Source: an uncultured Gammaproteobacteria bacterium | GTDB lineage: Bacteria; Pseudomonadota; Gammaproteobacteria; Steroidobacterales; Steroidobacteraceae | DNA length: 64,000 nucleotides | Direction: 5' to 3' | Assembly: GCA_963782865.1 (NCBI GenBank) | Contig: CAWALS010000018.1 | Location: 37,011 to 101,010 of the forward strand | Shown: piece by piece, positions 31,808 through 52,035 of the stretch | Layout of the letters: every line of letters begins with the position of its first letter | Numbering within the stretch: the stretch's first letter is position 1 | Notes under the pieces: model-generated | Database searches by the model: none | What the model saw: only the letters and a program-made list of their open reading frames with translations | Told to the model about the DNA's origin: nothing | Program-made: the position numbers and the translations under genes

Positions 31808-33626
31808 TCAAATTCTGATCGTGCCGTCCGAAATCGCCGCATACAGCGCGGCATCCAGCGGCACGTAGCGCTGCGATCGCGCATCATCGAAATACAACGG
31901 ATCCGGCGACTCGACTCGGGTCGAAACCTGCCTGCATCAGTTCCTGTTTGCGCGGCTTGAAGGTGCCGGTGGCCTCGAGCGTCGGCAGGATTCGGAGAAA
32001 CACCGGCCGCGCATAGGGCGGCAGGCGCTGCGCGACATCCGCGCGAAACGCCGCAAGATCAAAATCGGCATTCGACCACCAGCGCCGCAGTGCCCGCACG
32101 GCCATCGGCGCCGGGCACGCTAACGCCGTACACCACGCCGTCGAGCACGCCGCGGCTCGCCGTGAGCGCCGTCAACACCTCCGCCGTCGAGACGTTTTCC
32201 CCTTTCCAGCGATACGTTTCGCCGACCCGGTCGACGAAATAGAAAAACCCGCGCTCATCGCGCCGCATCAGATCGCCGGTCCGATACCACGAATCGCCTT
32301 CTTGAAGACATTGCGCAACACCTTGCGCGCCGACGCCTCCGCATCCGCATAGCCTTCGAATCGGCCGGCGCGCTCGCCGCCCGCCGCGGGAATCAGCCCG
32401 ACGGCCTCGCCAATCTCATTGACCGCGCAACGCTCGCAGAAACCCGTCGGCGTTGCGCCGCGGCTCTCCGCTTTGTCAACATCGAATCGCAGCAGCGCCA
32501 CCGGCAGGCGATTGCGCCAGAAACGGCGGTATGCGGCCGATGGCGCCCGGCTGTCCCTCGCAGTTGTAGAGCGAAAAGTTGCCTTCCGTGGACGCGTAGT
32601 ATTCGAGGATTCGCGGAATCTTGAAAGCGGCTTTGGAACGGTTCCCAGACCTCGGGCCGCAAGCCATTGCCGCAGGCGATCCGCAGGCAGTGCTCGGTTT
32701 CGATCGTGCTGGTGCGGCGCATTGACCAGGTAGCGGCACAGCTCGCCGATGTATTGAAACAGCGTGCAGCGCTGCTCGCGCACATCGCGCCAGAAATCCG
32801 ACGCCGAAAACCGCGGGCGAATCACCACGGCGCCGCCGCTGACCAGCGTCGCAAACGTCGCCACCACGCCGCCGACGCTGTGATACAGCGGCAGGCAATC
32901 GAACATGCGATCCTCGGGCCGGTATCCAGCATGCCGGCAAACCAATGGCTCCACTGCATCAGCCGGTAGTGGCTGACCTTGGCCGCTTTCGGCAGGCCGG
33001 TGGTGCCCGAGGTATAGATATAGAGCGCGGTGGCATCGATCGGCGCCGGCGCGCGCTCGGCCGCCGTCAGCGACTCGCCCGACAAAGCGGCGAGCTCCGG
33101 TTCGAGCGGCGCGAAAATTCCGCGGCTCGATCCCACGACCCGGCAGGCACAGTGCCGCCGGCAAGCGCGCCGCGGATCGCCGCGACTCGCGGCGCAAGAT
33201 CCGCGCCGACGATCAAGTGTCTTGGGCTGCGCGATGTTGATCGAATGCGCCAGCGCATCGCCCGCAAGCTGTGAATTGATCAGCGCCACGACGACGCCGA
33301 TGCGCGTCAAGCCCGAGCCAAATGGCCAGATACTCGGCGCAGTTCCCCATCAGCAGCGACACGGCGTCGCCGCTTGCAAGATCGCTGGCGCCACTCCCCA
33401 GCGCGCGTATTGATTGCAGCGAAACGCCAGTTGCGCGATAGCTCATCGAGGCTTCGCGCGAAATGAGCGCGGGCGACGCTGCCGAATTGCTGAGCCCAGC
33501 CGCTCGATCAGCGCGGGAAGCGTAATTCCGCGCTCGCCGATGGAGGCGGTCTTGCCGAGGGCGCGAAGCCATGCATCGCGGGCGAATTTTGCATCGAGCT
33601 CGCCCGGCTGCGTCCGGAATGTTCAT
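31808..33626 (-). pseudogene. very-long-chain acyl-CoA synthetase / FATP-type adenylate-forming enzyme, with many frameshifts
   Basis: Conserved pieces are scattered over all three minus frames: GDAVSLLMGNCAEYLAIWLGL, LTRIGVVVALINSQL, YIYTSGTTGLPKAAKVSHYR, DCLPLYHSVGG, ILEYYASTEGN, YRTGDLMRRDERGFFYFVDRVGETYRWKGENVST, GTFKPRK and a terminal DPLYFDD...DGTIRI*. I count at least 10 frame changes. The 5' end is approximate. Confidence 0.8.
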
Positions 33627-33718
33627 TTAACGTCATCTATGGGAATTGCGAACCATACCACGACTACCCGCATCGTTCGAGATACACTGCGCCATCACCA
33701 ACTTACGATTCACGCAGC

Positions 33719-35004
33719 ATGAAGCGGGAAACGATCGCAATTCACGGCGGCTTCGACTCCGACCCGACGACCAAGGCGGTGGCGGTGCCGATCTACCAAA
33801 CGGCCGCTTACTCCTTCGACAGCGCCGAGCACGGCGCCGCCTTGTTCAACCTCGAGGTTCCCGGATACCGCTACACGCGGATCAGCAATCCGACCACCGA
33901 GGTTCTCGAGCAGCGCGTGACCGAACTCGAGGGCGGCGTCGGCGCGCTGAGCGTGAGCCTCCGGTCAGACGGCGCTGTATTATGCGTCGCTGAATGCACT
34001 GGAAACGGGCCGCAACATCGTCTCGGTGCCGCAGCTCTACGGCACGACCTACACGTTGTTCGCGCATATTCTGCCGAAAATGGGCGATTCAGCGTGCGCT
34101 TCGCCAAGTCCGACCGCGCCGCCGATCTCGAGGCGCTGATCGACGAGAACACCCGCGCGATATTTTGCGAGACCGTCGGCAATCCGGCCGGCAACGTCTG
34201 CGACCTCGAGGCGCTGGCGACGCGTGGCGCATCGCCATCGCATGCCGCTGATCGTCGACAACACGGTGGCGACGCCGATGCTGGTGCGGCCGGTCGAATA
34301 CGGCGCGGACATCGTGATCCACTCGTTGACGAAATTCATGGGCGGCCACGGCACGACGCTCGGCGGCATCATCGTCGACTGCGGGCGGTTTCCCGTGGAC
34401 AGCAGCACGCGGCCCGCTATCCCATGTTCACGCAGCCGGACGAGTCCTATCACGGCTTGGTCTACACCGAGCACTACGGCGCCGCGGCATTCATCGGCCG
34501 CTGCCGCAGCGTCTATCCAGCGCACCATGGGCGCGGTGCTCTCGCCGATGAACGCCTTTCTGCTGCTGCAGGGCATCGAGACCGTGGCGCTGCGCATCGA
34601 TCGTCACGTCGAGAATGCGCGCAAAGTCGCCGAGTTCCTGCGCGCCGATCCGCGCGTCGAGTCGGTGAACTTTGCGGGGTTTGCCGACAATCCGTATCAT
34701 CCGCTTGGTGCAGAAATATCTGGGCGGCAGGGCGTGCTCGCTGATGACTTTCGAAATCCGCGGCGGCTTGCAGGCCGGCATGCGTTTCTACAACGCGCTC
34801 AAGCTGTTCAAGCGCTTGGTGAATTTGGGCGATGCGAAATCGCTGGCCTGCCATCCGGCATCGACGACGCATCGGCAAATGTCCGCCGCAGGAACAGCTG
34901 GCGGCGGGCGTCGGCCCGGGCAGCATTCGCCTGAGCGTCGGGCATCGAGCACATCGACGACATCCTCGCCGATCTGGACCAGGCGCTCGGCGCCGCCGGC
35001 TTGA
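33719..35004 (+). pseudogene. metY: O-acetylhomoserine/O-acetylserine sulfhydrylase-type PLP enzyme (MetY-like), with many frameshifts
   Basis: MKRETIAIHGGFDSDPTTKAVAVPIYQTAAYSF...RISNPTT, then pieces in alternating frames (SGQTALYYASL, NTRAIFCETVGNPAGNV, MPLIVDNTVATP..SLTKFMGGHG, MGAVLSPMNAFLLLQGIETVALR, NLGDAKSLACHPASTTHRQ, IRLSVG/IEHIDDI). At least 8 frame changes by my reading. The 3' end is approximate. Confidence 0.8.
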
Positions 35005-36460
35005 ATCCGCAGATCCATTGCCGGACTGCCGTTCCGGCGTTATTTCCCAATCCGGCGGACCGAGAGCGGATCGAGCAACTGGCTGACGCTCGAGCTGCGG
35101 CGGCGCATTGCGGCGCATTCAGGCGCGGCCCGGTGACGCCGAGCATCGACATGCAGCAATTCGCGCGCCGAGCTGGAACGGCTTCGACTTCGAGCACGCC
35201 GCAGCCGCTCGAAGATGCATTGCGCTGGACCATCGAGCGCATGGAGCATGGCATCGTGCAAATGTCGAACCCGCGCTATTTCGGCCTGTTCAATCCGGGC
35301 GCCAACTTTCCCCGCGCAATGCGCCGATCGCATCGCGGGTCTGTTCAATCCGCAGCTCGCGAGTTCGGCGTCCTCGCCTGTGCCGGTGGCACTGGAAAGC
35401 CACGTGATCCGCGCGGTGGCGCGGCGCGCCGCATTCGGCGCGGATGCGACCGGGCATTTCGCGACCGGCGGATCGGAGGCGAACTACACGGCGCTGATCT
35501 GTGCGCGCTGACCGGCCGCCCATCCCGGCTATTCCGCGCGAGGGCGTGCGCGCCTTCGCCGGACCGGTCGAAGTTCTATACGTCACGGGAATGTCACATC
35601 GCGTGGCTGAAAATCGCGCATCAGGCCGGCGTCGGCCGCGGCGCGCTGCGGCTGGTCGATACCGACGGTCGGGGCCGGATGGATCCGCAGGCGCTGCTTC
35701 GGCGCCATTGCGGAGGACCGCGCCGCGGGCGCGGTTCCGGTGATGATCGTTGCCACGGCCGGAACCACCGGCGCGCGGCATGATCGACCCGTTGCACGCC
35801 TGCGCCGACATCGCCAAGCAGCAGGCGTCTGTGGTACCACGTCGATGCGGCCTGGGGCGGCGCGGCGCTGGCGTCGGATCGCCTGCGCGGCGCTGCTTGA
35901 CGGCATCGAGCGCGCCGACTCGATCACCATCGATGCCCACAAATGGTTCGCGACCACCATGGGATGCGCCATGTTCTTGTCACGCCGCGGCCGACCTGCT
36001 TGTCCGAAGCATTTCATGCCTCGACGAGCTTCATGCCGTCGAGCATTTCGGCGCTCGATCCCTACCTTGAACAGCGTGCAATGGTCGCGCCGTTTCATGG
36101 GGTTGCGCCTGTTCCTGGCGCTGGCGGCCGCCGGTTGGGAGGGCCTTGGCGCGCATGTCGAGCGCGGCGTCGAGGTGATCGAGCGCGTCAAGGAGCGGCT
36201 GGTTGCACTCGGCTGGCGCATCGCCAATGATTCACCGCTCGCGGTGCTGGACGCCGATTCCGCCGGCCGCAATGGGCGACGTGCGAGCCCTGGTGCGGCG
36301 GGTGGTGGCCTCCGGACGGGCCTGGGTGGCGCCGACCACCTTCGAAGGTCGCGAGGTGGTGCGGATCTGCGCGACCAACGGCGAAACCGCCATGGCCGAC
36401 GTGGACGCGCTGATCGCGGCGCTCAACGAGCGCCCCTTAAGCGCGTTTGAGCTCCTTTAA
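35001..36460 (+). pseudogene. PLP-dependent (group II-like) decarboxylase family protein, with many frameshifts
   Basis: Fragments in three frames: NPRYFGLFNPGANFP, AQCADRIAGLFNPQLASSASSP, HFATGGSEANYTALICA, MIVATAGTTG, SITIDAHKWF (PLP lysine) and a C-terminal RICATNGETAMADVDALIAALNE. At least about 10 frame changes. The start is approximate. Confidence 0.7.
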
Positions 36461-36707
36461 GCGCGCTGCGCCAAGGTGCGCTCCACCAGGCTCTCGATGG
36501 AGCGCAGCGAATGGAAATTCTCCGGTGTGATATCCGCCTTGCGCAATGGCGATGTCGAACTCCAGCTCGACGGCCAGCATGAGATTCACCATTTTCAACG
36601 AGCTGATGCCAAGATCGCTCAGTTGAGCGTCCAGCGGAAACGGGGCGGGCATACCGCGCTCTGGCCCCAAGAACGGCTTTAACCAGCGCGATCAGCCGCT
36701 CGCTCAC
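36457..36707 (-). pseudogene. acyl/aminoacyl carrier protein (about 80 aa), with two frameshifts
   Basis: SERLIALVKAVLG (frame 1), then PFPLDAQLSDLGISSLKMVNLMLAVELEFDIAI (frame 2, with the Ser in the carrier-protein DSL-like position), then KADITPENFHSLRSIESLVERTLAQRA* (frame 3). Confidence 0.65.
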
Positions 36708-36931
36708 CCCCTCATTGACGTCTGCGGATCCACTCGATGCGTCTCCTCAAAAAAAACAGGGCCGATAATACCGTGTAGCGCAGGATACGGAATACGATGC
36801 GGGTTTTACATATGTTTCGAAAACTGAGCCGAGCATCACTAAGTGACAAATATTTTCGCCGCGGCGTTATTGTCGAGTGCGGCCATCCCCGCATAATCCG
36901 CCGATTACAGGGCCGTAGGGCTGGTTTCAGA

Positions 36932-38144
36932 ATGGCAATCGAGACACACCGAATACCGGGTTCCCGCACTCCAAGCGCGCGGCAGAGCGACTTGACGGCG
37001 CGTGCCCGCGCAGCCGCCGACGTGGCCAGCGCCAACGCGGCCGCGGTCGACGCCGAGGCGCGCTTTCCCAGCGAGGCGTTCGCGGAACTGCGCAAGCAGC
37101 GGCTGCTCGGCATCCAGGTTCCGCAGCCTCTGGGCGGTGAAGGCGCCACGATCGCGCGAAATTGCCGACGTGTGCTACATCCTCGGCCAGTCCTGTTCCT
37201 CCACCGGCGCTGATTTACGCGATGCACCAGATCAAGATGGCGTGCATCGTGCGCCACTTCAAGAACAATGCCGCTCATGAGCGCATTCTGCGCCGCATCG
37301 TCGCCGAGCAATTGCTCCTGGCCTCATCGACCACCGAAGGCCAGGCTGGCGGCAACGTTCGTTCCAGCGAGGCAGCGGTCGAGCACGACGGCGAACAGGT
37401 CACCCTCGAACGCAAGGCGACGGTCATTTCCTATGCCGTGGAAGCGGACGGCATCGTCACCACCGCGCGCCGTGCCGCCGATGCCGCGGGCAACGATCAG
37501 GTACTGCTGGTGCTGTTGAAGTCCGACTATACCCTGGAGCGATTGCAGGTATGGGACACCCTGGGCATGCGCGGCACGCATAGCGAAGGCTTCACGCTGC
37601 GCGCGCGCGCCGCGGCCGCACAAATCCTGCCCGAACCCTACGAGCGAATTCACGCCCAGACCATGGTGCCGTTTCGCGCACATACTGTGGGGCTCGGTGT
37701 GGGCGGGAATCGCCGCCGCCGCGGCCTCCAAGGCGCAGGCTTTCGTGCGTCACGTGGTGCGGCAATCGAACGGCCAAACACCGCCCGGCGCCGCGCATTT
37801 CACCCAGGCGGTATCGACGTTGCGCACGCTGCGCGGCGTGCTCGCGGCCAGCCTGCGCAGCTATGAAGCGATCATGTCGGATGAGAAGGCGATCTCGTCC
37901 TTGGAATTTCAGGCGATGATTACCCTGACCAAGGTGCAGGTGTCGGAGCTCGCGGTGACCACGGTGCTCAGTTCGCTGCGCGCCTGCGGCTTATCCGGAT
38001 ATCGCAACGACACCGAATTCACCATCGGCCGCTTGCTGCGCGACGTGCTGTCCGCGCCGCATCATGATCAGCAACGACCGCATCTTGACCAATCTCGCAA
38101 CGACCTCATTGATGACGCCGCTGCCGAGCTCGATCAGCGGTTGA
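36932..38144 (+). pseudogene. acyl-CoA dehydrogenase family flavoprotein, with about 4 frameshifts
   Basis: FPSEAFAELRKQRLLGIQVP, EIADVCYILGQSCSSTG, ASSTTEGQAGG, WDTLGMRGTHSEGF and ACGLSGYRNDTEFTIGRLLRDVLSAP are distributed over three frames. The stop at 38142-38144 is 5 nt before the ligase ATG. Confidence 0.75.
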
Positions 38145-38149
38145 AGCCT

Positions 38150-39065
38150 ATGTCGCCCGATAGCGCCTCCGCAGTACCCGCTCGCGCATCTCGCCGATCA
38201 GCTGCTTCAGGCCCATGGGAGTCGACGGCGTTTATGCACGCACCGCGCTGTATGTGGATCTGGTTGAACGGCTCGAAAAGTACATCACCCGGCAGCGCGA
38301 CCCGCAGGCGGAAATCATGCGCTTCCCGCCGGTGATGAGCCGAACGCAGCTGGAGAAATCCGGGTATCTCAAAGAGCTTCCCCAATTTGCTGGGTTGCGT
38401 ATGCGCCCTGCACGGCTCTGAAAGCCTCGATCCGCTCGGCGGTGGAACGCTACGACAACGGCGGCGATTGGACCACCTCGCTGAGCTCCTCGGATCTGGT
38501 GCTGTCGCCCGCCGCTTGCTATCCCGTGTATCCGATCGCCGCGGCGCGCGGCCAGCTGCCGCGCGGCGGGCTGCAGTTCGATATCGAGGCCGATGTGTTC
38601 CGGCATGAGCCATCGCTCAGCCTCGATCGGCTGCAATCGTTCCGTATGCGTGAATTCGTGAGAATCGGCTCGCCGGACGAAATCGTCGAGTTTCGCGAAA
38701 AATGGATGGCCAAGGCGCCGGTACTGGCCGCCGAGCTGGGATTGCCGCACAGCATCGACGTGGCGAACGATCCATTCTTCGGTCGCGTGGGCCAAGTGAT
38801 GGCGGTCAGTCAGCGCCAGCAGGCCCTGAAGTTCGAATTGTTGATTCCCTACTATCCGAGCGCATCGCCCACCGCGTGCATGAGCTTCAACTATCACCGC
38901 GAGCACTTCGGCCAGGTGTGGGGCATCCGTGACGACAACGGCGAGTTGGCTCATACCAGCTGCGTCGCGTTCGGCATCGATCGCCTGGCGGTGGCGTTGT
39001 TCGCCAATCACGGCCTGGATCTCAAAACCTGGCCGGCGGCGGCTCGGCAGGCGCTGGCTCTGTAG
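38150..39065 (+). pseudogene. amino acid--[acyl-carrier-protein] ligase (truncated seryl-tRNA-synthetase homologue), with about 4 frameshifts in the first third
   Basis: About 305 aa when the frames are joined. GVDGVYARTALY...RFPPVMSRTQLEKSGYLK, LSPAACYPVYP, class II motif-2-like DVFRHEPS..RLQSFRMREFV, NDPFFGR, KFELLIP, and motif-3-like CVAFGIDRLAVALF. No N-terminal tRNA-binding coiled coil. Confidence 0.8.
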
Positions 39066-39099: not shown

Positions 39100-40031
39100 A
39101 TGCCACTCGACCCACGCGTCAAGCGCTTTTTGGATCTCCTCGCCGCGGGCAATCCGCCCGATGCGCGCAGCGCCACGGTCGAGGAACGCCGCAAGGGCCT
39201 CGTCGTCCTTGATGGAATTCGCCGGGCCGCCCCGCGCACTCGAACGAGTGGAGGATCGGACGCTGCCGGGCGCCGGACGGCGCGCTGCGCGTCAGGCTCT
39301 ATTCGCCCTCGAAGGCCGAGATGCTTCCCGGGCTCATCTATTTTCACGGCGGCGGCTTGGTTGCGGGCACCCTGGAAACCCACGACGGCATCGGCCGCGC
39401 GCTCAGCCTCTGCGGCGGCGTGCGCGTGGTGTCGGTGGACTATCGCTTGGCTCCCGAGCACCGCTTTCCCGCAGCGCTTGAGGACGCGAAAGCGGCGCTA
39501 GGCCATATCAGCGGGCACGCCGCGGATTTCGGAATCGACCCGAAGCGCCTCGGCATTTGCGGAGATTCCGCCGGCGCCACATTGGCCGCGGCGACTTGCC
39601 GGTGGGCGACTCAAACCGGCGGTTCACAACTCATCCTGCAGCTACTGCTCTGTCCGATACTCGACTACAGCCGAGTAACGGCGTCGAAGCGCGAATTATC
39701 GAGCGGCTATCTGGTCGACCAGGCCACCCTCGACCACGACTTGATGTACTACCTGCCGCCGGGCACGGCGCCGTCCAATCCGTTGGTATCGCCGCTGCGG
39801 GCGACGGACCTGTCCGGTATGCCGCGGACGCTGATACATACCGCAGAATTTGATCCATTGCGCGATGAGGGACGAAATTATTTCGAGCGCCTGACCCAAG
39901 CCGGCAATGAAGTGTCCTACACTTGCCATCCAGGTATGATTCATCTTTTCTATGGTTTGGGAGCCGTCATACCCTATGCGCGCACGGCATTCGAGCAGAT
40001 TGGCGCCGAGATTCGCGCAGCGCTGGCCTAG
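39100..40031 (+). pseudogene. alpha/beta hydrolase (HSL/esterase-lipase family), with two frameshifts near the 5' end
   Basis: MPLDPRVKRFLDLL..., then shifts near 39210 and 39262, then an intact 236-aa tail with HGGG (oxyanion hole), GDSAGA (nucleophile elbow) and DPLRDEG...HPGMIH. Confidence 0.8.
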
Positions 40032-40076: not shown

Positions 40077-40460
40077 GTGTCCGAGCGCATCGTCGCGGAA
40101 CGAATAATTCAGCAGCTTCACGCGGCGCGCGTCGGGGGCGATCTCGCCGGCATGTGCCGCGTTTTTGCCGACGTGGGCCGGTACGAAATTCTCGGTGCAA
40201 GCGCCGATAAGCCGATTGCCATTCGCGCCCAGACTCTCGCGGAGTTTCGGCCCTGGCTCTCCATGATGGTCAAGGTGTTCCGGCTCAACAATTATCAGCT
40301 CTTGAGCCTGACGGTCGAAATGCCGCGCGCGGTCGCGCATTGGCGCGCCGATATTTTTTCCAAAGTCACGGGCGCGACGGTTCCCACCGAACTGGCCGAT
40401 GTGGTCGAGATCAAAGCCGAGCGAATCGCCACTTATTCTGAATTCTTCGCGCCGCGCTGA
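40077..40460 (+). CDS. SnoaL/NTF2-like small protein
   Basis: 127 aa with a GTG start after AGGGAGA. Its size and alternating pattern are typical of the NTF2 fold. No catalytic assignment is possible by eye. Confidence 0.6.
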   Translation: MSERIVAERIIQQLHAARVGGDLAGMCRVFADVGRYEILGASADKPIAIRAQTLAEFRPWLSMMVKVFRLNNYQLLSLTVEMPRAVAHWRADIFSKVTGATVPTELADVVEIKAERIATYSEFFAPR

Positions 40461-40475
40461 GCGCAGCGATTCAAG

Positions 40476-41099
40476 GTGTCCCAGGAACCGCAGTGGCTCA
40501 AGATCGCACGCGAGATACGGGCCATCGCTCAGACCGGACTCGCCTTTACCGCGGACGGATTTGACCGTCAGCGCTACCAACGGCTGCGCGAATTGGCGGC
40601 CCTGCTGCTGGCGCAAGGTTCAGCCGCCGCGCATGACTCCATCCTCGAACTGCTACGCCAGGAAAAAGGCTACGCGACGCCGAAGGTGGATGTTCGCGGC
40701 GCGGCCTTTGCAGACGGGCGCGTGTTGATGGTGCGCGAGATCAGCGACGGCCAGTGGACCCTGCCGGGCGGTTGGGCCGACGTCAATCAATCGGCGGGTG
40801 AATGCGTCGTGCGCGAGATTGCCGAGGAATCGGGGTTCAAGGCCCGCGCCCTGAAGCTCGCCGCGGTCTACGACTACCAAAAAAGAAATCCGCCCCGCCA
40901 CATCGACTCGATCTACAAAATGTTCTTCATCTGCGAGATCGTGGGTGGCGCGGCGTGCGCCAGCGACGAGACCAGCGAAGTGGCCTTCTTCGCGCGCCAT
41001 GAGCTGCCGCCGCTGTCGCTGGGCCGAACCACGGCGCAGCAGATCGACAGGATGTTCCAACATCGCGAACATATGGAGCTCGAGACGGACTTCGATTGA
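40476..41099 (+). CDS. NUDIX hydrolase with an N-terminal Nudix_N-type extension
   Basis: Nudix box GGWADVNQSAGECVVREIAEESGF, with an N-terminal WLKIAREIRAIAQTGLAF segment. Confidence 0.85.
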   Translation: MSQEPQWLKIAREIRAIAQTGLAFTADGFDRQRYQRLRELAALLLAQGSAAAHDSILELLRQEKGYATPKVDVRGAAFADGRVLMVREISDGQWTLPGGWADVNQSAGECVVREIAEESGFKARALKLAAVYDYQKRNPPRHIDSIYKMFFICEIVGGAACASDETSEVAFFARHELPPLSLGRTTAQQIDRMFQHREHMELETDFD

Positions 41100-43448: not shown

Positions 43449-44774
43449 TCAAGATACTGTAGCATCCGCGGTATTCCGACTCCACGGCAAATCCAAGGCG
43501 ACGATCAGACCTCCGCCCTGGCGATTGGCCAACTGAATGCGGCCGCCATGCGCTTCAGCGATTTCGCGCGCGAGCGCCAAGCCCAATCCGGTGCCGCTGC
43601 GCTTGGTGGAATAAAAGGGCAACAGCGCCTGTGCCAGGACCGTCTGGCTCATTCCGGATCCTCTGTCGCGCACCTCGATGCGTTGATCCGCACCGGCACA
43701 GACAATGGCGAGTTCCACCTGCGCCGCCGCGCCGCCCGCTTCGTGTGCGTTCTTCAGCATATTGATCAGCGCCTGTTCCACTTGCACGCGATCGAACCAA
43801 CCCGGCAGCTCAGGCAGCGGTTCGATGCAGGTAAAAGGCTGCTGGCGCCGAAGGTCCGCGACGAACTGTTGCCATGTTACCGATTCGGGTCGGGGCGCGG
43901 GCAATTTGGCAAACGCGGCATAGCCGCTGACGAATTGGTGCAGGTGCTCGGCGCGTTCCGCAATCGCCGAAAAGACGGTCGGCAGCGCCGCGTAATCTGC
44001 GCGCCGCGCAATTTCGGCGCCGGAATGTGCGAGCGAGGACAGGGGGCCCAAGGAATTGTTGAGCTCATGGCTGAGTACCCGGATCAGCTTCTTCCAGGTC
44101 GAAACTTCCTGGCGCGAGAGTTCGCGCGTCAGGCGCTTGAGCAAGTACAGCCTGAAGGTGCGCCCCTGCAGGATAAAGGCGCGCTGCGACAGATGAAATG
44201 TCTCTTCGACCCCATCGATTTCGGTGGAAAACAGATTGTCGCCCTGCTCTGCCGCCGCCGCTTGCAATGCCGCCGGAGCCTGCGCGAGGGCGTCGTGGAA
44301 TCGCAGGCCCTGCAGGCTGCGCCCGCCGCTCAACAGGTGCCGCGACGCGATGTTCGCGTAGGCGACGCGATCGTTCGCGTCGACCAACACCAACGCAACC
44401 GGCGAATTCTGCATGACGGTGTCAAGCAGCAATTCTCGCTGCACCAGATGCGCGCGCTGCTCGCGCAGGGCCGCCGCCAGTTCATTGTGCGCCGTCATCA
44501 GTTCGCCGAGCTCATCGTCGCGATCGGCGACCAGCGACAAGCTGAAATCGCCCTCGCGGTAGCTGGCCACCGTGCCCGACAGCGCGCGCAGCATCTGCTG
44601 GATCGGCCGCATGATGCGCGATGACAGCCACAGCAGCGGCAGCAGCGATGCCGCAACGATCAATAGCCAACTGAACAGAGGATTGCCGAACCAGCGTGCC
44701 GCCCAGGCACTGACCGCCGCGGTGAGCGCGACAATGACGATCAAAAGCAGCGCGAGCTTGGTCTTGAGGCTCAA
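43449..44774 (-). CDS. sensor histidine kinase (TM-HAMP-PAS-like-HisKA-HATPase), partner of the NtrC-type regulator
   Basis: Two TM segments, a HAMP-like region, the H-box LSHELNNSLGP, an N-box LKNAHEA and G-boxes DRGSGM / GTGLGLALA. Lies 9 nt downstream of the regulator gene. Confidence 0.85.
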   Translation of the reverse strand: MSLKTKLALLLIVIVALTAAVSAWAARWFGNPLFSWLLIVAASLLPLLWLSSRIMRPIQQMLRALSGTVASYREGDFSLSLVADRDDELGELMTAHNELAAALREQRAHLVQRELLLDTVMQNSPVALVLVDANDRVAYANIASRHLLSGGRSLQGLRFHDALAQAPAALQAAAAEQGDNLFSTEIDGVEETFHLSQRAFILQGRTFRLYLLKRLTRELSRQEVSTWKKLIRVLSHELNNSLGPLSSLAHSGAEIARRADYAALPTVFSAIAERAEHLHQFVSGYAAFAKLPAPRPESVTWQQFVADLRRQQPFTCIEPLPELPGWFDRVQVEQALINMLKNAHEAGGAAAQVELAIVCAGADQRIEVRDRGSGMSQTVLAQALLPFYSTKRSGTGLGLALAREIAEAHGGRIQLANRQGGGLIVALDLPWSRNTADATVS

Positions 44775-44783
44775 GGGCGAGGC

Positions 44784-46130
44784 TCAGGCGCCGCTAGGCG
44801 GGCGCAGATTGAACCGCTCCATTCGGCGGTATAAAGCCTGACGCGACAGCCCCAGATTCTGTGCCGCCCGGCTGATGTTGCCGCCGGCCTCCCTTAAACT
44901 CGCCTCCAAGACTTCCTTGCTCAAATTCTCGCTTTCCCGCGGCGGAGCGCGAGCCGCGGCGGGCAGATTCAAATCAGCGGCCGCCACGATGCGCTCGCGC
45001 GCCAGCAGCTTGGCGCGCTCGATGGAATTGCGCAGCTCGCGCACATTGCCGGGCCAATCGTGAGCCTGCAGTGCCGCCGCAGCATCTTCGCTCAATTGCA
45101 TTCCCTCGCCGAGAAAATGCCGCGCCAGCGGCAGGATATCCGCCGGCCGGTCCGCCAGCGGCGGGACGGCGATGTCAATCACATTCAGCCGGTAATACAG
45201 GTCTTCGCGAAAACGCCCTTCGCGGATCAGCGCCGGCAAATCCGCATTCGTCGCACTCAGGATGCGAACTTGCGCGGTGCGCGTCTTGCTCGAGCCCAGC
45301 ATCTCGAATTGACCGGTCTCGAGCACGCGCAGCAGTTTGACTTGTCCGGCGAGCGGCAAATCGCCGATCTCGTCCAGGAACAAGGTGCCGCCATTCGCCG
45401 CCTCGAAGCGCCCGGTGCGCGCGCGCGTGGCGCCGGTATAGGCTCCCGCCTCGGCGCCGAACAATTCGGCCTCGATCAACTCGGCGGGAATGGCGCCGCA
45501 GTTGACCGCGACAAAGGGACCGGCGCGCAGCGCGGAGTTGGCGTGCACGATCTGCGCAATGCGCTCCTTACCCGCGCCGTTCGGGCCGCTGATGAGCACG
45601 CGGACATCGGCGCGCGCCACGCGGCAGGCCAGTTCGACCACCCGCTCCATCGCATCCGAGGCGAACACAATATCGCAAAGATCGTATTGCTCCGCCAAGC
45701 GCTCGCGCCGACGGCGCTGTTCCTCCTGCAGGCGCAGCCGCTCGCGCGTCGTCTCGGCCAGCTCCAGCAGATTCTCCACCGTCGCCAACAGCTTGTCATT
45801 GTCCCAGGGCTTGCCGATGTAATCCGCCGCGCCCGCCTTGACGAGCTGCACCGCGGCCTCCAGATGGGTCCATGCCGTGAGCAGCACCACCGGCAGATCG
45901 GGCTGCACCGCGCGCAGCGCACGAAACAGTGCCGCGCCCTCTTCACCCGAGGTTGTATCGGCGCTGAAGTTCATGTCGGCGATCACGAGATCAACGCGCT
46001 CCTGCGCCAGCGCGGCGAGCCCTTTCTGCGGGGTGAGAGCGGTCAGCGTGCGGATGTCATGCAAGCCGAACAACAGGATGAGCGCCTGGGCGACCGCCGG
46101 ATTGTCATCAATAACGAGTACCGTACGCAT
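44784..46130 (-). CDS. sigma-54-dependent response regulator (NtrC/AtoC family: REC, AAA+, Fis-type HTH)
   Basis: REC (VLVIDDNP...DLVIADMNF), Walker [15 protein letters not shown] (a GAFTGA variant), WPGNVREL and a C-terminal [20 protein letters not shown]. Confidence 0.9.
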
Positions 46131-46176: not shown

Positions 46177-47394
46177 TTAACCGCCGCGAGTCGCCAAGGC
46201 GGGGGGAATGGCAGCCGCGCGCAACGCCGGCCACAGCACGGCGAATTGGCCCAGCAGCAGAATGATGACGGCGCCGATGATGGCGCGGCTGTTGTCCATG
46301 CGTACCATTTCAAAACTGCGCACCATCCATAAGTTCAGGGCGATGGCGAAGGCGATGCCGACCGCGGCACCCGCCGCGGCGATCATGAAATTCTCGGTTT
46401 GAAAATAACGCACGATGGCCTGCCGCGTGGCGCCCAAGGCGCGCCGAATGCCGATTTGCCGGCGCCGCTGCGCCACCCAATAGCTCGTCAGACCAATGAT
46501 CCCGAACGCCGTCACGATGAGCAGCGCCGCGCAGATGCAGGTCAGCAGCACGATGAGGCCGTGATCGCCGCGATACGCATCGGCGCGTACCTGCAGCATC
46601 GACTTGCCGTGCAGAATACGATTCTCATCCAGCGCATACAGTTTGCTCTCGGCCGCCTTCATGACCGCATCGAGCTGTCCTGGCTGCACGCGGACCATGT
46701 AGTTGTTGGTCTCGCCGATCAGATGATAGGGGGCGAGCACCGAAAACTCTTCGTACGGGACAAACATACCGGTGGCCGCCGTCATCGGGCCCTGCAGCCG
46801 GTCGACGATGCCGATGATCGGTGCGGGTTTATCGCTGTCGAAGATGATCATCTTGCCGAGCGCGTTCTCGTTCGGAAAAACCTTCTCAGCCAACATTTTG
46901 GTGACAATGAGGCCGCTGTACGGCGGATCGCCCGGCGGCCTCTTGGTCTCGATTTCGGTCGCGGTATAGTTGCGGCCGGCGATGAGCTTGAGACCCATGG
47001 TATTCAAAGCGTGTTCATCGCCCATGTAGTTCGCCGTGACCGCGGTTGGCGTCTTTTGATCGGGGGTCAAGGTGACGGTGTCGATCCAGCCGCCGCCTTG
47101 CATGGGATACATATTCGTGGTGAAGGCGTCGACTACTCCCGGCAGCCCACGCAGCGCGGTGACATCCGCTGAGTCGCGCGCCGCGCTGTCGCTCTGATGA
47201 TCGACGCTCTCGGACGTGATGATGAAGATATTTTTTTCATCGAGACCCGATGGACGGCTGCTCCATGCCGTACGCTGCTCGACCAGCGTGATGGCATTGG
47301 CCAGAAACGCCAGCGTCACCGCCATTTGCGTGGCGATGAGCAACGCGCCGAATTTATTGCGGCGCATCGCCGACAGTATGGGACGCAATTCCAT
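46177..47394 (-). CDS. FtsX/MacB-type ABC transporter permease (type 2, distal copy), intact
   Basis: 405 aa: an N-terminal TM, a large periplasmic domain and a C-terminal FtsX 3-TM bundle (RRRQIGIRRALGATRQAIVRYFQTENF). Confidence 0.85.
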   Translation of the reverse strand: MELRPILSAMRRNKFGALLIATQMAVTLAFLANAITLVEQRTAWSSRPSGLDEKNIFIITSESVDHQSDSAARDSADVTALRGLPGVVDAFTTNMYPMQGGGWIDTVTLTPDQKTPTAVTANYMGDEHALNTMGLKLIAGRNYTATEIETKRPPGDPPYSGLIVTKMLAEKVFPNENALGKMIIFDSDKPAPIIGIVDRLQGPMTAATGMFVPYEEFSVLAPYHLIGETNNYMVRVQPGQLDAVMKAAESKLYALDENRILHGKSMLQVRADAYRGDHGLIVLLTCICAALLIVTAFGIIGLTSYWVAQRRRQIGIRRALGATRQAIVRYFQTENFMIAAAGAAVGIAFAIALNLWMVRSFEMVRMDNSRAIIGAVIILLLGQFAVLWPALRAAAIPPALATRGG

Positions 47395-47404
47395 TTCAGT
47401 TCTC

Positions 47405-48719
47405 CTACTGAGCCTTGAGCTGCCAGGCAGGCTGCACGTGCGCAGCCCGCCAGGTCGGATACAGTCCGGCCAGCAGCGTTGCGCCTACCGCGAGCAGCAC
47501 CGCGATGGCCGTGTCGGTCAAATCCAGGTGCGCAAGGGCGACGAAGTTTTTGGCCAGCAGCGAGCGCGCCGCCATCAGCCCCAGCGCCGTCAACCCGAGA
47601 CCCAATATTCCGCCGGCGAGCCCGACCACGCCGGTCTCGACCAGGCACTGCGCGAAGATCGCGGCGCGGCTGGCACCGAGCGCGCGGCGCACACCGATGT
47701 CCCCCACGCGGCCCATGATTTTCGCGAGCATCAGTCCCATGGCGTTCATCAGGCATACCAGCAAGAATCCGAACGACACCAAAATCAGGATGCGCACCTC
47801 GTTGGGAACGATGTGCCGGTAGCGCAGCCATTCGGTGACATTGCGCAATTGGGTGTGCGGCGGCCAATGAAATCGTCCCAATCGTTGCTGTTCCGCCGCG
47901 TAATTGTTCAAGTATGCCCGGTACCTCGCCGCATCCGCGGCGCGTCGGCAATTCGACCCAGAACTGTAGCCATACGCATTCGGATCGCAACAGCACGTCA
48001 TAGGCCGTCCCGCCCTCACCATTGCATTTGATGCTGCCCAAGACTTTCATTTGCTTGTCGATGGCGCGCGTGTAGGGCATGAAGATCTCATCGCTCCTGC
48101 CGAACGGCTGAACCTGCACATCGTAGAAGCGCGGCAGGAGCTGCCAGTCGTCCAGCACGCCGATCACGGTATAGGGTTCGCTGTCCAGACGCACCGTCTT
48201 GCCCACGCTGTTCTGGCCGCCGAATAGGCGATCGTTCATCGCGCTCGTCAACACCACCACCGCGGCGCGATTTGCATCATCCGCCGCGGACCAGGCGCGC
48301 CCATATTTGAAGGGAGCGTCGAACATCGGGAAGAAGTCGGTATAGGTGGTTCGCACGTTGGCTTTGAACGGCTTTTGCCGCGGATCGTCAGGGCGTACGG
48401 ACAGCAAGGTCGCGAACATGGCGGCTTGACGTTTTGCCGCGTGCGCCTGCATGAACGCCGAGACGTCGATGTAGCTCAGCAGGTCTGGGAGACCGTCGGG
48501 GGAATCCTGAGGAGGCCTCTCCGGCGACCAGTTATCGATCTGCGGCGTATAAAGCTCGCTCGACTTCTGCGGAATCGGATCCCCGGACATGGCGCGAAAT
48601 ACGGTCAGCGACGTCATGCACGCGCCGATGCCGACCGCAATCGCCGCGATCATCAGGCCCGTCAAGACCATATTGCGCCGCAGGCTGCGAATCCCCAGTC
48701 GAAAATAGTAGCGAAACAT
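47405..48719 (-). pseudogene. FtsX/MacB-type ABC transporter permease (type 1, distal copy), with a single frameshift near 47943
   Basis: The N-terminal 258 aa (MFRYYFRLGIRSLRRNMVL...WVELP) and the C-terminal part (AADAARYRAYLNNY...GDIGVRRALGASRAAIF...QLKAQ*) lie in frames offset by one base. Confidence 0.8.
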
Positions 48720-48737: not shown

Positions 48738-49975
48738 CTAGGCTGCGCGCGTTGCCAATGCCGGCGGAATGGACGCCGCCTTCAACGCCGGCCACAGCAC
48801 CGCCGCTTGCCCAGCAGCAGCACGACGACCGCGCCGACCAGATGCGTAGCCGGTATTCAGGCGCTCCATGGCAAAGGCACTCACCATCCAGAGATTCAGC
48901 GACACCGCCAAGGCCGACGCCCGATCGCAGCGCCCGCGCCGGCGATCAATAAATTCTCCGTCTGGAAGTAGTGGATGATGGCATTGCGCGTCGCACCCAG
49001 CGCGCGGCGGATGCCGATCTGGCGCCGGCGCTGCGCCACCCAATAGCTGGTGAGTCCGACGATTCCGAACGCGGTGACAGCCAACAGCGCCGCGCACACC
49101 ACCCCCAGGATCACCACCAGACCGCGGTCGTCCTTGTAGATCTCCCTGCGCAGAGCCGTCATGCGGCCGCGTCTTCCCGATGACCCGCGCACGGCTGATG
49201 TCGAAAAGCTTCTTCGGCGCCGCCTGGATCACCGCCGCAGCCTGGCCGGGCTGCGCGCGCACGACGTACAGAACCGGATACGGGACCACGAGGTGAAAGG
49301 GCACGATGAAAGAATTGTCGTTGAAGCTGCTGCCCCATCCGCCCGCCGATACCCACGGCACTTGCAATCGATCGATCACTGCCGACGATGGGCACTTGGC
49401 CTTTCGAAAAATCGTCGTAGATGCACTGACCCACCGCATTCGCGCTGGGAAACAGCTTGTCGGCCAGCCCCGCGTGATGATGACTGCCGCGGGCGGCGCC
49501 TGAAGTCGGTGTAGCCGACCTTTCCGTGACTTCGGCGGAGATTGAAATTGCGGCCGGCGATCAGCTTAAGTCCCAGGGCGTGCAGACGCATGTTCGTCGC
49601 CAAAGTACAAGGCGGCCGTGCCGAGGCGTTCTTCTGGTCCGGATTCAGACTGATGCCCTCGGTCGAGCCGCCGTCGCTCAAGGGATAGGAATTGGTCGCA
49701 AACGCATCCTCAACGCCCGGCAAGGAGCGCAGCGCCGCAAGATCGCCCTGCAGCCGGGCCGCCATGATCGGGCGGATTACCGACCCATTGATTGTCGATG
49801 ACGATGACATTGGCCTCGTCGTCATGCCGGTCGGCCGTTGGCTCAGGGCAACCCGCTGTTCGATGATGAACAAGCGCATTGCAGAGGATCGCCAGCGTGA
49901 TCGCCATTTGCACGGCAATCAGGATCGCGCCGACCTTGTTGCGGCGCATGGCTGAAAGGATGGGACGAATTCCAT
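48738..49975 (-). pseudogene. FtsX/MacB-type permease (type 2, proximal copy), with many frameshifts
   Basis: Paralogue of 46177..47394. The ATG at 49975 follows TAGGAGG. Recognisable pieces include MRRNKVGAILIAVQMAITLAIL, LRSLPGVEDAFATNSYPL, LGLKLIAGRNF and RRRQIGIRRALGATRNAIIHYFQTENL, spread over all three frames. Confidence 0.75.
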
Positions 49976-49985
49976 GGTATGCCTC

Positions 49986-51317
49986 CTACTGAGCCTTGAG
50001 TTGCCAGGCCGGTTGAACTTGTGCGGCGCGCCAGGTGGGATACAGCCCGGCCAGCGTGGTCGCCAACACCGCCAGGGTCACGGCGATGGCGATGTCCGCG
50101 GGACTGAAGTGCGTCAGGCGGGTCGACTTGCTCGGACAGCAGCGAGCGCAGGCCCATGAGTCCCAACGCCGTGAGCGCCAGCCCCAGCAGGCCGCCCGCC
50201 AGGCCGACCACGCCCGCCTCGATCAGGCACTGGCCGAAAATGGCGCCGCGACTGGCGCCGAGCGCGCGCCGCACGCCGATGTCGCCGGCGCGCCCCATGA
50301 TTTTCGCCAGCATCAAGCCCATGGCATTGAGCAGGCACACCAACAGAAAGCTGAACGACACCAGCACCAGAATTCGCACTTCGTCGGTGACGGCGTGCTG
50401 ATAGACCAGCCACTCGCGTACATCGCGTATCCGCGTGTGCGGCGGCCAGTGAAAGCGCCCGGAACGCTGCTGCTCCGCCGCGTAGTTGTTCAGGAAGGCG
50501 CGATAGCGCTCGCACGTCCGCCGCGGCTGGGCAACTCCGCCCAGAACTGGATCCAGATGCATTCGGAATGCAGGTGGCCTTCCCAGCCGGGCTGCCATGG
50601 CATCGCCGGCGCAATTGTTGTTGCCCCAACTCGCATTTGGCCGTCGATGGCGCGCGTGAAGGGAATAAAAAGCTGCTTCGCCCTCGCCGTATTGATCGTT
50701 GTTGAGATCGTAGAATTGCGGCGTCGGCTCCCAGCGGTCCAAGACGCCGACCACCCGGATATTCGTGACCGTCGAGATTGATGCGTCTTGCCGACGGAAT
50801 TGGCGCCGCCGAATACCTTGTCGTTGAGTTGTTGCGTAATCACGACGACATCGGCGTGATCGTCGTCGTCAGCCGCGTCCACGGGCCGCCCGCCAGAAAC
50901 GGCGTCATGGAACATCTTGAAGAAATCCGTATAGGTCGCGCGAATCTGCACTTGAAACGGCCGCAGGTCGGGATTCGCAGGGGTCAGGGCCGCACCCGTC
51001 TCGTACATCGCGGCTCTGCCGGTGGGCCGCGTGCGCGTTCATCAGCCCGACCGCGTCGATATAGCTGATCTGATCCTGAAAGCGCTCCTTATCGCCGGGT
51101 ACGATGCCTTTGGCTTCGGGACCCCAATTATCGATCTGCACGCGCGAACAGCTGACGCGGATTTCTGCGGGATGGGGTCGCTGTCCATGGCCCGAAAGAC
51201 GGTCAGCGTCGTCATGGAAGCGCCGATGCCGACGCCGATGGCGGCAATCATCAGCACGGTGAGCACGATGTTGCGCTTGAGGCTGCGCAGCGCGAGGCCG
51301 AGATAGTAGTTGAACAT
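49986..51317 (-). pseudogene. FtsX/MacB-type permease (type 1, proximal copy), with many frameshifts
   Basis: Paralogue of 47405..48719. [53 protein letters not shown], then fragments, then FHWPPHTRIRDVREW...GDIGVRRALGASRGAIF in other frames. The ATG at 51317 follows AAGGAGG. Confidence 0.75.
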
Positions 51318-51327
51318 GGTGGCCTCC

Positions 51328-52035
51328 TTAAGGGTTGGCGTTCGCGGTGGCGACCAAGCGGCGGCTGGGCCGCCAGATCGACCACCTGGCCGTCGACGAT
51401 ATGCACCTCGCGCTGCGCGCGCACCGCAAGTTCCGGATCATGCGTCACCATCACGATGGTCGCGCCGTCGCGATGCAGCTCCTCGAGCAGATCCATGACG
51501 CCGCGCGCCATCTGCGTATCGAGATTGCCGGTCGGTTCATCCGCCAGCAGCAGCCGCGGCGAGCCCGCCAGCGCGCGCGCGATGGCGACGCGCTGCTGCT
51601 GGCCGCCCGACAGTTCCGCCGGGTAGTGCCGCGCGCGCGCCGACAGGCCGACGCGCCCAGCGACTCCTGGATGCGGCGGCGTCTTTCGGCGGCGTTGAAG
51701 CCGCGATAGCGCAGCGGCACATCGATGTTGTCCTGCACGTTCAGGTCGGCGATCAGATTGAAGGCCTGAAAGATGAAGCCGATCTTCTCATTGCGCAGCC
51801 GCGAGCGCTGGTTGTCGTTCAGGCCGCGCACATTGGCGCCATCCAGCTGGTACTCGCCGCCGCTGAACTCCTCGAGCAGCCCCGCGATGGTCAGGAAAGT
51901 GGTCTTGCCCGAGCCCGAGGCCCGGTGACCGCGACGAACTCGCCCTCGCGCACGTGGATCGAGAAGTCCCGCAGCGCGTAAGGTCTCGACGACTTCGGTG
52001 CGATAGGCTTTGGAGAGGTGGGTCATTTTCAGCAT
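51328..52035 (-). pseudogene. ABC transporter ATP-binding protein (MacB/LolD-type), with about 5 frameshifts
   Basis: MLKMTHLSKAYRTEVVET..., SGSGKTTFL (Walker A), [11 protein letters not shown], then in another frame [15 protein letters not shown] / [12 protein letters not shown] / VMVTHD. The start overlaps the HlyD stop (ATGCTGA). Confidence 0.8.

Follow-up and report, generated by a model that had tools for sequence, protein, structure and literature searches.

A 64-kb stretch of contig CAWALS010000018.1, from an uncultured gammaproteobacterium of the Steroidobacteraceae (the whole stretch is referred to below as the window), probably carries near its middle a soil-bacterium, Steroidobacteraceae-type copy of the amino acid:[carrier protein] ligase module typified by Bll0957, the genes of which most probably have unbroken frames in the organism itself. 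The module consists of three genes, encoding a stand-alone carrier protein, a flavoprotein with the acyl-CoA dehydrogenase (ACAD) fold, and a 303-amino-acid (aa) class II synthetase core of the zinc type that descends from methanogen-type seryl-tRNA synthetase (SerRS). The ligase, its carrier protein and the ACAD-like neighbour were already known; what is new is a member in a different bacterial class, accompanied by a distinct set of conserved accessory genes.

Open reading frames (ORFs) were listed for the 28-46 kb section of the window. Between approximately 31.8 and 39.3 kb these are all short and overlapping, with long intact genes flanking both sides, yet Pfam searches of the fragments matched Cys_Met_Meta_PP (two pieces), Pyridoxal_deC, PP-binding, the N-terminal, middle and C-terminal Acyl-CoA_dh domains (three pieces), tRNA-synt_2b (weakly) and Abhydrolase_3. 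The same gene order is present, with every gene intact, on a 226-kb metagenome contig (L001): AMP-binding (-), MetY (+), Pyridoxal_deC (+), PP-binding (-), ACAD-like (+), ligase (+), Abhydrolase_3 (+), SnoaL_2 (+) and NUDIX (+). Frameshift-aware alignment of the L001 proteins to the window located 57 frameshifts between positions 31904 and 39272, and none of the seven genes in the 31.8-39.3 kb section is free of them. The last five genes form a run on one strand, in which the TGA of the ACAD-like gene is followed after 5 nt by the ATG of the ligase, with gaps of 34 nt from ligase to hydrolase, 45 nt from hydrolase to SnoaL and 15 nt from SnoaL to NUDIX. The inventory drawn up in an earlier, sequence-only reading is borne out, comprising a SerRS-like core, an ACAD-like gene 5 nt upstream of it, a divergent carrier protein gene across an AT-rich intergenic region, and flanks with a pyridoxal phosphate (PLP)-dependent decarboxylase, a MetY-like enzyme, a FATP-type ligase and an alpha/beta hydrolase, here assigned to Abhydrolase_3; the lengths of the ligase and carrier protein are corrected to 303 aa and around 90 aa respectively.

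The ligase gene begins with an ATG at position 38150, not 38151, and its frame was repaired by removing four +1 insertions, near 38172, 38205, 38370 and 38422. The peptides DVFRHEPS, AFGIDRLAVALF and PAACYPVYP all fall within the intact 3' ORF at 38442-39065. Alone, this 207-aa fragment scores 18 bits on Pfam tRNA-synt_2b, under the threshold, and retrieves thousands of proteins of around 303 aa, which are up to 94% identical to it and are named "amino acid--[acyl-carrier-protein] ligase" in one source. Full-length orthologues are uniformly about 303 aa long (range 282-312 aa). The repaired protein passes the NCBIfam equivalog model of that name, NF005479, with 449.1 bits against a cut-off of 357, and a homologue 95% identical to it (P0005) aligns over its full length with the Bll0957 structures 3MEY, 3MF1 and 4H2S at E=2e-138. 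Hence the window ligase is a new member of a known, named and crystallised family, one comprising 273 clusters at 50% identity (E<1e-30). An alignment of 30 representatives, down to 33% identity, has 18 invariant columns; the window ligase retains all 18 of these residues as well as 24 of 24 that are near-invariant. Amongst the invariant residues are the motif 2 and 3 arginines (R150 and R277), and Cys122, Glu152 and Cys270, which we take to be the zinc ligands. One homologue of 396 aa (P0135, a representative at 45% identity) has an N-terminal extension of around 110 aa ahead of the catalytic core, which may represent an additional domain joined to it, perhaps a carrier protein.

Ligases of this kind were first described and crystallised between 2010 and 2013, and in the work of Mocibob in 2010 Bll0957 reportedly showed a preference for glycine in vitro. 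Glycine is our best guess for the substrate of the window ligase, on the strength of its orthology with Bll0957. ATP-dependent aminoacylation of holo-carrier protein, with no charging of tRNA, has been reported for Bll0957, Bll6282 and Atu2573 (PMC9437257); given that this activity is established for the family (PMC9437257; PMC2922099), the window ligase would be expected to act in the same way.

The carrier protein scores 20.8 bits on Pfam PP-binding, which is the threshold itself. In an alignment of 50 orthologues, among them those from Bradyrhizobium, at least 95% keep the second serine of the GISSL motif, and this serine is the predicted phosphopantetheine acceptor; the sequence-only reading had called for such a serine to be kept. 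Other positions conserved at this level in the same alignment follow the pattern G..S..MV.LML..E.EFD..I.Q..ITPENF.S. The intergenic region that separates the divergent carrier protein and ACAD-like genes contains a promoter-like sequence, TTGTCG-16-CATAAT, at 36870-36897 on the forward strand, around 35 nt upstream of the ACAD-like ATG (a promoter scan of the region returned two sites where 0.4 were expected). Upstream of this are a near-palindrome, ATCACTAAGTGAC, at 36835-36847, which takes the form GTCACTAAGT.AC in relatives, and a conserved motif, TTTTACATATG, at 36804-36814. All three features are common to most of 14 aligned related loci, and the near-palindrome and TTTTACATATG may be an operator for a regulator. 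As the linkage to MetY suggested that a riboswitch such as a SAM element might be present, the whole window was scanned with Rfam at gathering thresholds, giving no hits.

The third component of the module belongs, from its domain matches, to the acyl-CoA dehydrogenase superfamily at the level of the fold. Fragments in the window score 27.6 bits on the N-terminal Acyl-CoA_dh model (above the threshold of 22.9), 28.1 bits on the middle model (below 33.3) and 19.2 bits on the C-terminal model (below 22.4), whilst intact homologues, at 88-96% identity, have precomputed matches to both PF02771 and PF02770. None of the NCBIfam models is passed, the best being FadE16 (91 bits; cut-off 600) and SfnB (62 bits). 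The protein is similarly remote, at E values of about 1e-10, from solved ACADs and from the ACAD-fold nitrososynthases (3MXL, DnmZ). These pairwise alignments are weak and the residue assignments made from them tentative, but they place no glutamate at either of the canonical catalytic base positions: the YEG glutamate of medium-chain acyl-CoA dehydrogenase-type enzymes aligns to Ile378 (in PIMIS), and that of isovaleryl-CoA dehydrogenase-type enzymes to Ala248, which adjoins the invariant His249. Across 66 orthologues, His249, His98, His108, Glu135, His240 and Glu338 are each at least 98% conserved. The sequence-only reading had drawn an analogy with the dehydrogenases that oxidise prolyl-S-carrier proteins; this is not established, as the protein scores 51 bits on PigA (cut-off 500) and 40 bits on RedW (cut-off 650) and seems to lack the glutamate at both base positions, and is best treated as a lead. 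Glycine has no C-beta, making its alpha,beta-dehydrogenation impossible. Therefore, with a glycine substrate and no canonical glutamate in the flavoprotein, oxidation of the amine (at the C-alpha-N bond) or N-oxygenation is at least as likely as alpha,beta-dehydrogenation, and would be a serious alternative if glycine is what the ligase loads.

In order to survey the distribution of the module, a profile built from a 10-sequence alignment was run against one genome per GTDB species, which yielded 80 loci. The closest are from Steroidobacteraceae and other gammaproteobacterial metagenome-assembled genomes (ligase identity 67-95%), followed by Bradyrhizobium, Rhodopseudomonas and other Alphaproteobacteria (around 66-71%), along with two Burkholderiales/betaproteobacterial loci. 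In essentially all 80 the carrier protein gene (-), the ACAD-like gene (+) and the ligase gene (+) occur together with fixed spacing, the first being divergent from the second, across Gamma-, Alpha- and Betaproteobacteria. This conservation of the flavoprotein and carrier protein with the ligase is what the sequence-only reading had anticipated. Neighbouring genes were counted using tblastn with the proteins of the cluster, at those loci having full 10-kb flanks: 22 gammaproteobacterial, 35 alphaproteobacterial and one betaproteobacterial (Table 1).

Table 1. Features of the ligase locus in the window, with the occurrence of each gene at related loci with full 10-kb flanks.
Feature	Position	Strand	Frameshifts	Description	Gamma	Alpha	Beta
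FATP/FadD6-type long-chain acyl-CoA synthetase	31811..33627	-	18	~600 aa; NF006134; divergent from MetY	18/22	3/35	0/1
MetY-type O-acetylhomoserine/O-acetylserine sulfhydrylase	33719..35003	+	9	424 aa; TIGR01326; occurrence counted within 10 kb of ligase	22/22	18/35	1/1
Group II PLP-dependent decarboxylase	35003..36439	+	17	~471 aa; Pyridoxal_deC; DAHKW lysine motif	20/22	0/35	0/1
Stand-alone carrier protein	36460..36733	-	3	~90 aa; GTG start as called in intact relatives; Pfam PP-binding	21/22	35/35	1/1
Divergent control region	36734..36931	.		198 nt; 50.5% GC (window 62.8%)			
ACAD-fold flavoprotein, bll0958 orthologue	36932..38144	+	4	402 aa after repair of four insertions; Acyl-CoA_dh domains	22/22	34/35	1/1
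Amino acid:[carrier protein] ligase, Bll0957-type	38150..39065	+	4	303 aa after frame repair; NF005479			
Hormone-sensitive-lipase-family alpha/beta hydrolase (Abhydrolase_3)	39100..40031	+	2	PF07859; insertions at ~39206 and 39273	22/22 (directly after ligase)	10/35 (nearby)	1/1
SnoaL_2/NTF2-like protein	40077..40460	+	0	127 aa, intact; 100% coverage and 80% identity to L001 orthologue	22/22	0/35	0/1
NUDIX hydrolase with Nudix_N domain	40476..41099	+	0	207 aa, intact; last gene of same-strand run	9/22	0/35	
MetA/HTS homoserine O-acyltransferase					7/22	17/35	0/1
Class IV aminotransferase					0/22	16/35	1/1

Amongst the accessory genes of the window, the FATP-type ligase passes NF006134 (688.6 bits; cut-off 625) and has TSGTTGLPK, YRTGD and GENV motifs, and MetY passes TIGR01326 (598.5 bits; cut-off 495.1), with its PLP-lysine motif, SLTKF, at residue 201. 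A second homologue of the Cys/Met-metabolism PLP enzymes is encoded on the reverse strand of the window at 3653-3985, and is 33% identical to the cluster MetY over around 110 aa; hence the latter is not the sole enzyme of its family in the neighbourhood. The start of the decarboxylase gene abuts or overlaps the MetY stop. A fragment of it scores 34.6 bits on PF00282 (threshold 27), with the DAHKW motif present, but it passes no NCBIfam subfamily model, the best being that for DABA decarboxylase (155 bits; cut-off 900), and its nearest PDB entries are the tryptophan decarboxylase 4OBU, cysteine-sulfinate decarboxylase and glutamate decarboxylase. The hydrolase scores 219 bits on PF07859, having HGGG at residue 82 and GDSAG at 154, and falls short of the NCBIfam equivalog for LipP1, a hormone-sensitive lipase (300 bits; cut-off 350). 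SnoaL orthologues match Pfam SnoaL_2 weakly, and it is doubtful that the NUDIX gene belongs to the cluster.

The arrangement of these neighbours varies between lineages. MetY lies upstream of the module in Gamma- and Betaproteobacteria and downstream in Alphaproteobacteria, with at least four gene orders represented. In one gammaproteobacterial subclade (L020, L023, L028-L030, L034, L039, L045 and L082), the carrier protein and ACAD-like genes are separated by a MetA/HTS gene, at around 7.6-8.6 kb in locus coordinates, which the clade of the window lacks. At 23 Bradyrhizobium-type loci (L064, L051 and 21 others), mtnP (PNP_UDP_1) and mtnA (IF-2B family) directly follow the carrier protein gene on the same strand, at around 5.9-7.9 kb, and are 91-100% conserved within Bradyrhizobium, whilst many alphaproteobacterial loci have metY and metA downstream of the ligase. 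The Bradyrhizobium module is therefore embedded among genes of methionine metabolism. Directly after the ligase at 29 of the 35 alphaproteobacterial loci (L036-L081, around 10.9-11.9 kb in locus coordinates) is a gene for a protein of 291-312 aa, which overlaps the end of the ligase in L064. This protein has no Pfam or NCBIfam match, and the idea that it might be a diverged DUF1839 was rejected on an hhalign probability of 0.1%; in the alphaproteobacterial lineage it could be the protein that makes use of the aminoacyl-carrier protein.

From these data a pathway can be proposed. The ligase, to judge from its family membership, would adenylate a small amino acid and then attach the aminoacyl group, through the phosphopantetheine thiol, to the carrier protein of the divergent gene. 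The flavoprotein would modify the tethered aminoacyl group, a role suggested by its universal co-occurrence with the ligase, and the hormone-sensitive-lipase-type hydrolase would release or transfer the product. The hydrolase is a candidate off-loading enzyme because of its position and because alpha/beta hydrolases recur after related ligases: those of the Hydrolase_4 type follow the ligase in two clades that lack the ACAD-like gene.

The sequence-only reading had taken the whole cluster as a single pathway, a view that holds in part. Across the gammaproteobacterial loci MetY, the hydrolase and SnoaL are all invariably present, and the decarboxylase and FATP-type ligase nearly so; in Alphaproteobacteria, however, the decarboxylase is never found and the FATP-type ligase is rare. 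Both of these may lie outside the ligase pathway, and MetY, the decarboxylase, the FATP-type ligase and SnoaL would appear to be lineage-specific accessories, of which MetY, often with MetA, is the most persistently linked across classes. The persistence of this linkage points to homoserine or sulfur-amino-acid chemistry. Were it functional, then with a flavoprotein that seemingly lacks the ACAD catalytic glutamate the module might make a tethered small amino acid, oxidised by the flavin enzyme or N-oxygenated, that feeds a MetY-type gamma-replacement on activated homoserine, followed in the Steroidobacteraceae by decarboxylation and release by the esterase. We regard this detailed scheme as improbable as it stands; if true, the product would be an undescribed metabolite derived from homoserine or a sulfur amino acid, which would give these ligases a biological role.

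A simpler account is that the triad of carrier protein, flavoprotein and ligase functions alone, with MetY, the decarboxylase, the FATP-type synthetase, the hydrolase, SnoaL and NUDIX being ordinary neighbours kept by lineage-specific synteny. Consistent with this, the decarboxylase, SnoaL and NUDIX genes are found at none of the 35 alphaproteobacterial loci and the FATP-type ligase at just three, loci of the B. diazoefficiens type have none of these neighbours within 10 kb, MetY and the FATP-type ligase score above the cut-offs of curated housekeeping-enzyme models, and next to the Bradyrhizobium triad are mtnP and mtnA, likewise housekeeping-like. However, although the locus has been rearranged several times, MetY has remained no more than 10 kb away in three classes of Proteobacteria, and is more conserved between classes (69-77% identity) than is the ligase (66-70%). 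The hydrolase also recurs in all three classes, and in the window lies 34 nt from the ligase on the same strand. On balance, a triad acting without any of its neighbours seems unlikely, though it deserves to be taken seriously.

A quite different use for the aminoacyl-carrier protein, the aminoacylation of a cell-surface sugar or polymer, was suggested when Iyer, Aravind and colleagues discussed the neighbourhoods of this SerRS paralogue in 2010 and proposed a Dlt-like role for it (PMC2922099). A note added in proof to the same paper describes linkage to the conserved unknown protein Atu2574, a glycosidase and lipopolysaccharide genes, and contexts of this sort are indeed found around more distant ligases. 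Those of 50% and 44% identity have an ACAD-like-ligase-DUF1839 arrangement, with a GH2-like gene near one such locus; at the 44% locus the carrier protein and the ACAD-like protein are homologous to those of the triad, the latter with around 40% identity. A ligase of 43% identity is found as ligase-DUF1839. Ligases of 46% and 40% identity have a PP-binding-ligase-Hydrolase_4 arrangement, together with either Acyl_transf_3 and GNAT or ACPS and with no ACAD-like gene, and glycosyltransferases also occur in the contexts of the more distant clades. By contrast, no DUF1839, Acyl_transf_3, glycosyltransferase or glycosidase gene lies near the module in the window or at the 22 closest loci with full flanks, and DUF1839 homologues are absent from the window and from 82 Bll0957-type loci. 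Instead, the window and the closest loci carry MetY, decarboxylase and acyl-CoA synthetase genes, which encode enzymes of the type that acts on soluble metabolites. The proposal of a cell-surface role is more apt for the clades with DUF1839 and Acyl_transf_3 than for the cluster in the window, near which there are no envelope genes and for which we consider it improbable.

The frameshifts raise the question of whether the cluster is a decaying set of pseudogenes whose pathway has been lost. All seven of the genes between 31.8 and 39.3 kb are affected, whilst the adjacent histidine kinase, SnoaL and NUDIX genes and those downstream, including FtsX1, have no frameshifts, and the left edge of the affected patch roughly coincides with the end of the FATP-type gene. 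The right edge, though, falls inside the hydrolase gene and not at a gene boundary, and the mutations themselves are of an unusual kind. In a five-way DNA alignment of the window and four relatives, the window has 53 private insertions of 1 nt and seven of 2 nt, against four 1-nt deletions, the overall ratio of insertions to deletions being about 60:5. The relatives have none or one private insertion each, and the 4.7-kb right flank of the window has none. Natural bacterial indels are biased towards deletion and enriched in repeats; of the 53 single-nucleotide insertions here, just 15 adjoin an identical base, which also leaves homopolymer-type (nanopore or 454) error unsupported as the cause. 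The inserted bases (18 C, 17 G, 9 A and 9 T) match the background composition.

Neither is there an excess of amino acid change on the branch leading to the window. Once repaired, its proteins have essentially no internal stops, retain every catalytic motif, and are as similar to those of L001 as are those of an intact locus, L005 (ligase, 95% in both; ACAD-like protein, 94% against 93%; MetY, 93% against 91%). A hidden Markov model of codon phase found excess phase switching at 32-40 kb and 48-52 kb only. This second patch of insertions (48800-52200, plus one site near 47939) affects unrelated genes for MacB/FtsX-type ABC permeases and ATPases, where, compared with a relative, L087, the window carries 23 additional single bases; two control regions have none. 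The permease genes here form two tandem paralogous MacB_PCD/FtsX pairs, at 46180-48719 and 48747-51317, adjoining a sigma-54-dependent two-component system (43479-46130), and L087 has only the pair that matches the second, error-laden copy.

The bias towards insertion, the random sequence context, the second patch in unrelated genes and the undiminished purifying selection all argue that the 60 or so insertions of 1-2 nt are most likely errors of the sequence record, and that gene decay is very unlikely. Sporadic frameshifts are also seen in the ligase, ACAD-like, hydrolase and MetY genes of other metagenome-assembled genomes (L022, L082, L020 and L039, of long-read-style MFD origin), with 13 across three genes in L082 alone, and annotation of the ligase family in such genomes will be patchy. 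Automated annotation confronted with the patches of random single-nucleotide insertions in the window record would either call the cluster pseudogenes or miss it.

Frame repair also disposes of the notion that the ligase gene might be a piece or a variant form of a canonical SerRS that charges tRNA: residues 108-298 bear a weak similarity to the methanogen-type enzyme (aligning to positions 304-502 of a 518-position model, with P0005 matching the type-2 structure 3W3S in the catalytic core alone, at E=7e-16), but the scores of 70 bits on PRK00960 and 55 bits on TIGR00415 are far under the cut-offs of 611 and 490, and the repaired protein, at 303 aa like its orthologues, has no N-terminal tRNA-binding domain in the model alignment, such that there is almost no chance of this being correct. 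The sequence-only reading had likewise classed the protein among the SerRS-like enzymes that charge carrier proteins.

A number of points nevertheless tell against parts of the interpretation of the region as an intact Bll0957-class module with associated accessories. The amino acid specificity is extrapolated from an orthologue that is around 68% identical. The flavoprotein passes no curated model and aligns weakly (E about 1e-10), so that statements about its catalytic residues are tentative, and the AlphaFold2 model of its homologue P0271, made with 20 sequences of at least 88% identity, has a mean pLDDT of 42.7 and is unusable. MetY resembles an ordinary housekeeping sulfhydrylase, and the decarboxylase and FATP-type ligase are missing from almost all alphaproteobacterial loci, the type locus included. 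Finally, a technical origin of the insertions is not provable from one record, the nearest DNA relatives of which are 84-86% identical.

According to a 2022 review, the biological role of loading amino acids onto these carrier proteins is still unknown (PMC9437257), and our literature search found neither a solved downstream pathway nor anything newer than that review. In this context three observations serve as useful leads, though none is a discovery: the linkage to MetY and MetA, the atypical nature of the flavoprotein, and the variation between lineages in which gene follows the ligase. The flavoprotein is an obligate partner of the ligase across a deep clade, yet appears to lack the canonical ACAD base, and classical dehydrogenation would be impossible were the substrate glycine. 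The gene following the ligase varies by lineage: a hormone-sensitive-lipase-type esterase in the window, the 291-312-aa protein in Bradyrhizobium, DUF1839 elsewhere, and Hydrolase_4 with a membrane acyltransferase in the clades lacking the ACAD-like gene. These proteins provide concrete candidates for an enzyme acting on the aminoacyl-carrier protein, and along with the flavoprotein and the recurrence of MetY and MetA nearby they sharpen the question of the role of the ligase.

Five known systems can be compared with the window cluster. Methanogen-type (type 2) SerRS (3W3S; TIGR00415) has a homologous catalytic core with the same Cys/Glu/Cys residues, but the window ligase is without its N-terminal tRNA-binding domain and scores far below its models. 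The DltA and DltC pair is similar in that, independently of the assembly lines of non-ribosomal peptide synthetases, a stand-alone ligase charges a small carrier protein of its own on the phosphopantetheine arm. However, DltA is a member of the ANL superfamily, with an unrelated fold, the MBOAT protein DltB and DltD of the Dlt operon are absent from the window, and Dlt systems have no flavoprotein partner.

The prolyl-S-carrier-protein dehydrogenases (PigA, RedW, PltE and AnaB) share with the window flavoprotein the ACAD fold, a presumed tethered aminoacyl substrate and a gene located beside that of the loading enzyme. The window protein is nonetheless remote from the structure 4IRN (E=9e-6) and, tentatively, has no glutamate at either base position. 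Its loading enzyme is a class II aminoacyl-tRNA synthetase core instead of an ANL adenylation domain, and the likely substrate, glycine, is incapable of alpha,beta-dehydrogenation. The loci of the Atu2573-type ligases, with the ACAD-like-ligase-DUF1839 arrangement (Atu2574 of PMC2922099), share the core of carrier protein, orthologous ACAD-like protein (around 40% identity) and truncated SerRS-like ligase (44-50%); the window differs in having no DUF1839, a predicted transferase, and no glycosidase or lipopolysaccharide genes nearby.

The nearest characterised system is the Bll0957 locus of B. diazoefficiens USDA110 (bll0957, bll0958 or "acd", and bsr0959), which has the same layout as the window: the ACAD-like gene is immediately upstream of the ligase and the carrier protein gene divergent. 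Structures of Bll0957, "amino acid--[acyl-carrier-protein] ligase 1", are available as PDB entries 3MEY, 3MF1, 3PZC and 4H2S-4H2Y, and bll0957 and the adjacent bll0958 are both up-regulated in a phaR mutant of USDA110 (PMC10888616). The window ligase is around 67-70% identical to the Bradyrhizobium orthologues, of equal length and with the same Cys/Glu/Cys and motif 2 and 3 residues, and its helix GRVGQVMAVSQRQQ is similar to GRVGQMKAVSQKQQ of Bll0957, the segment altered in the 4H2W variant. The differences lie in the host, which is a Steroidobacteraceae-like gammaproteobacterium, and in the surrounding genes: an Abhydrolase_3 esterase follows the ligase in place of the 291-312-aa protein, and the place upstream of the module taken by mtnP and mtnA in Bradyrhizobium is occupied by MetY, a PLP-dependent decarboxylase and a FATP-type ligase.

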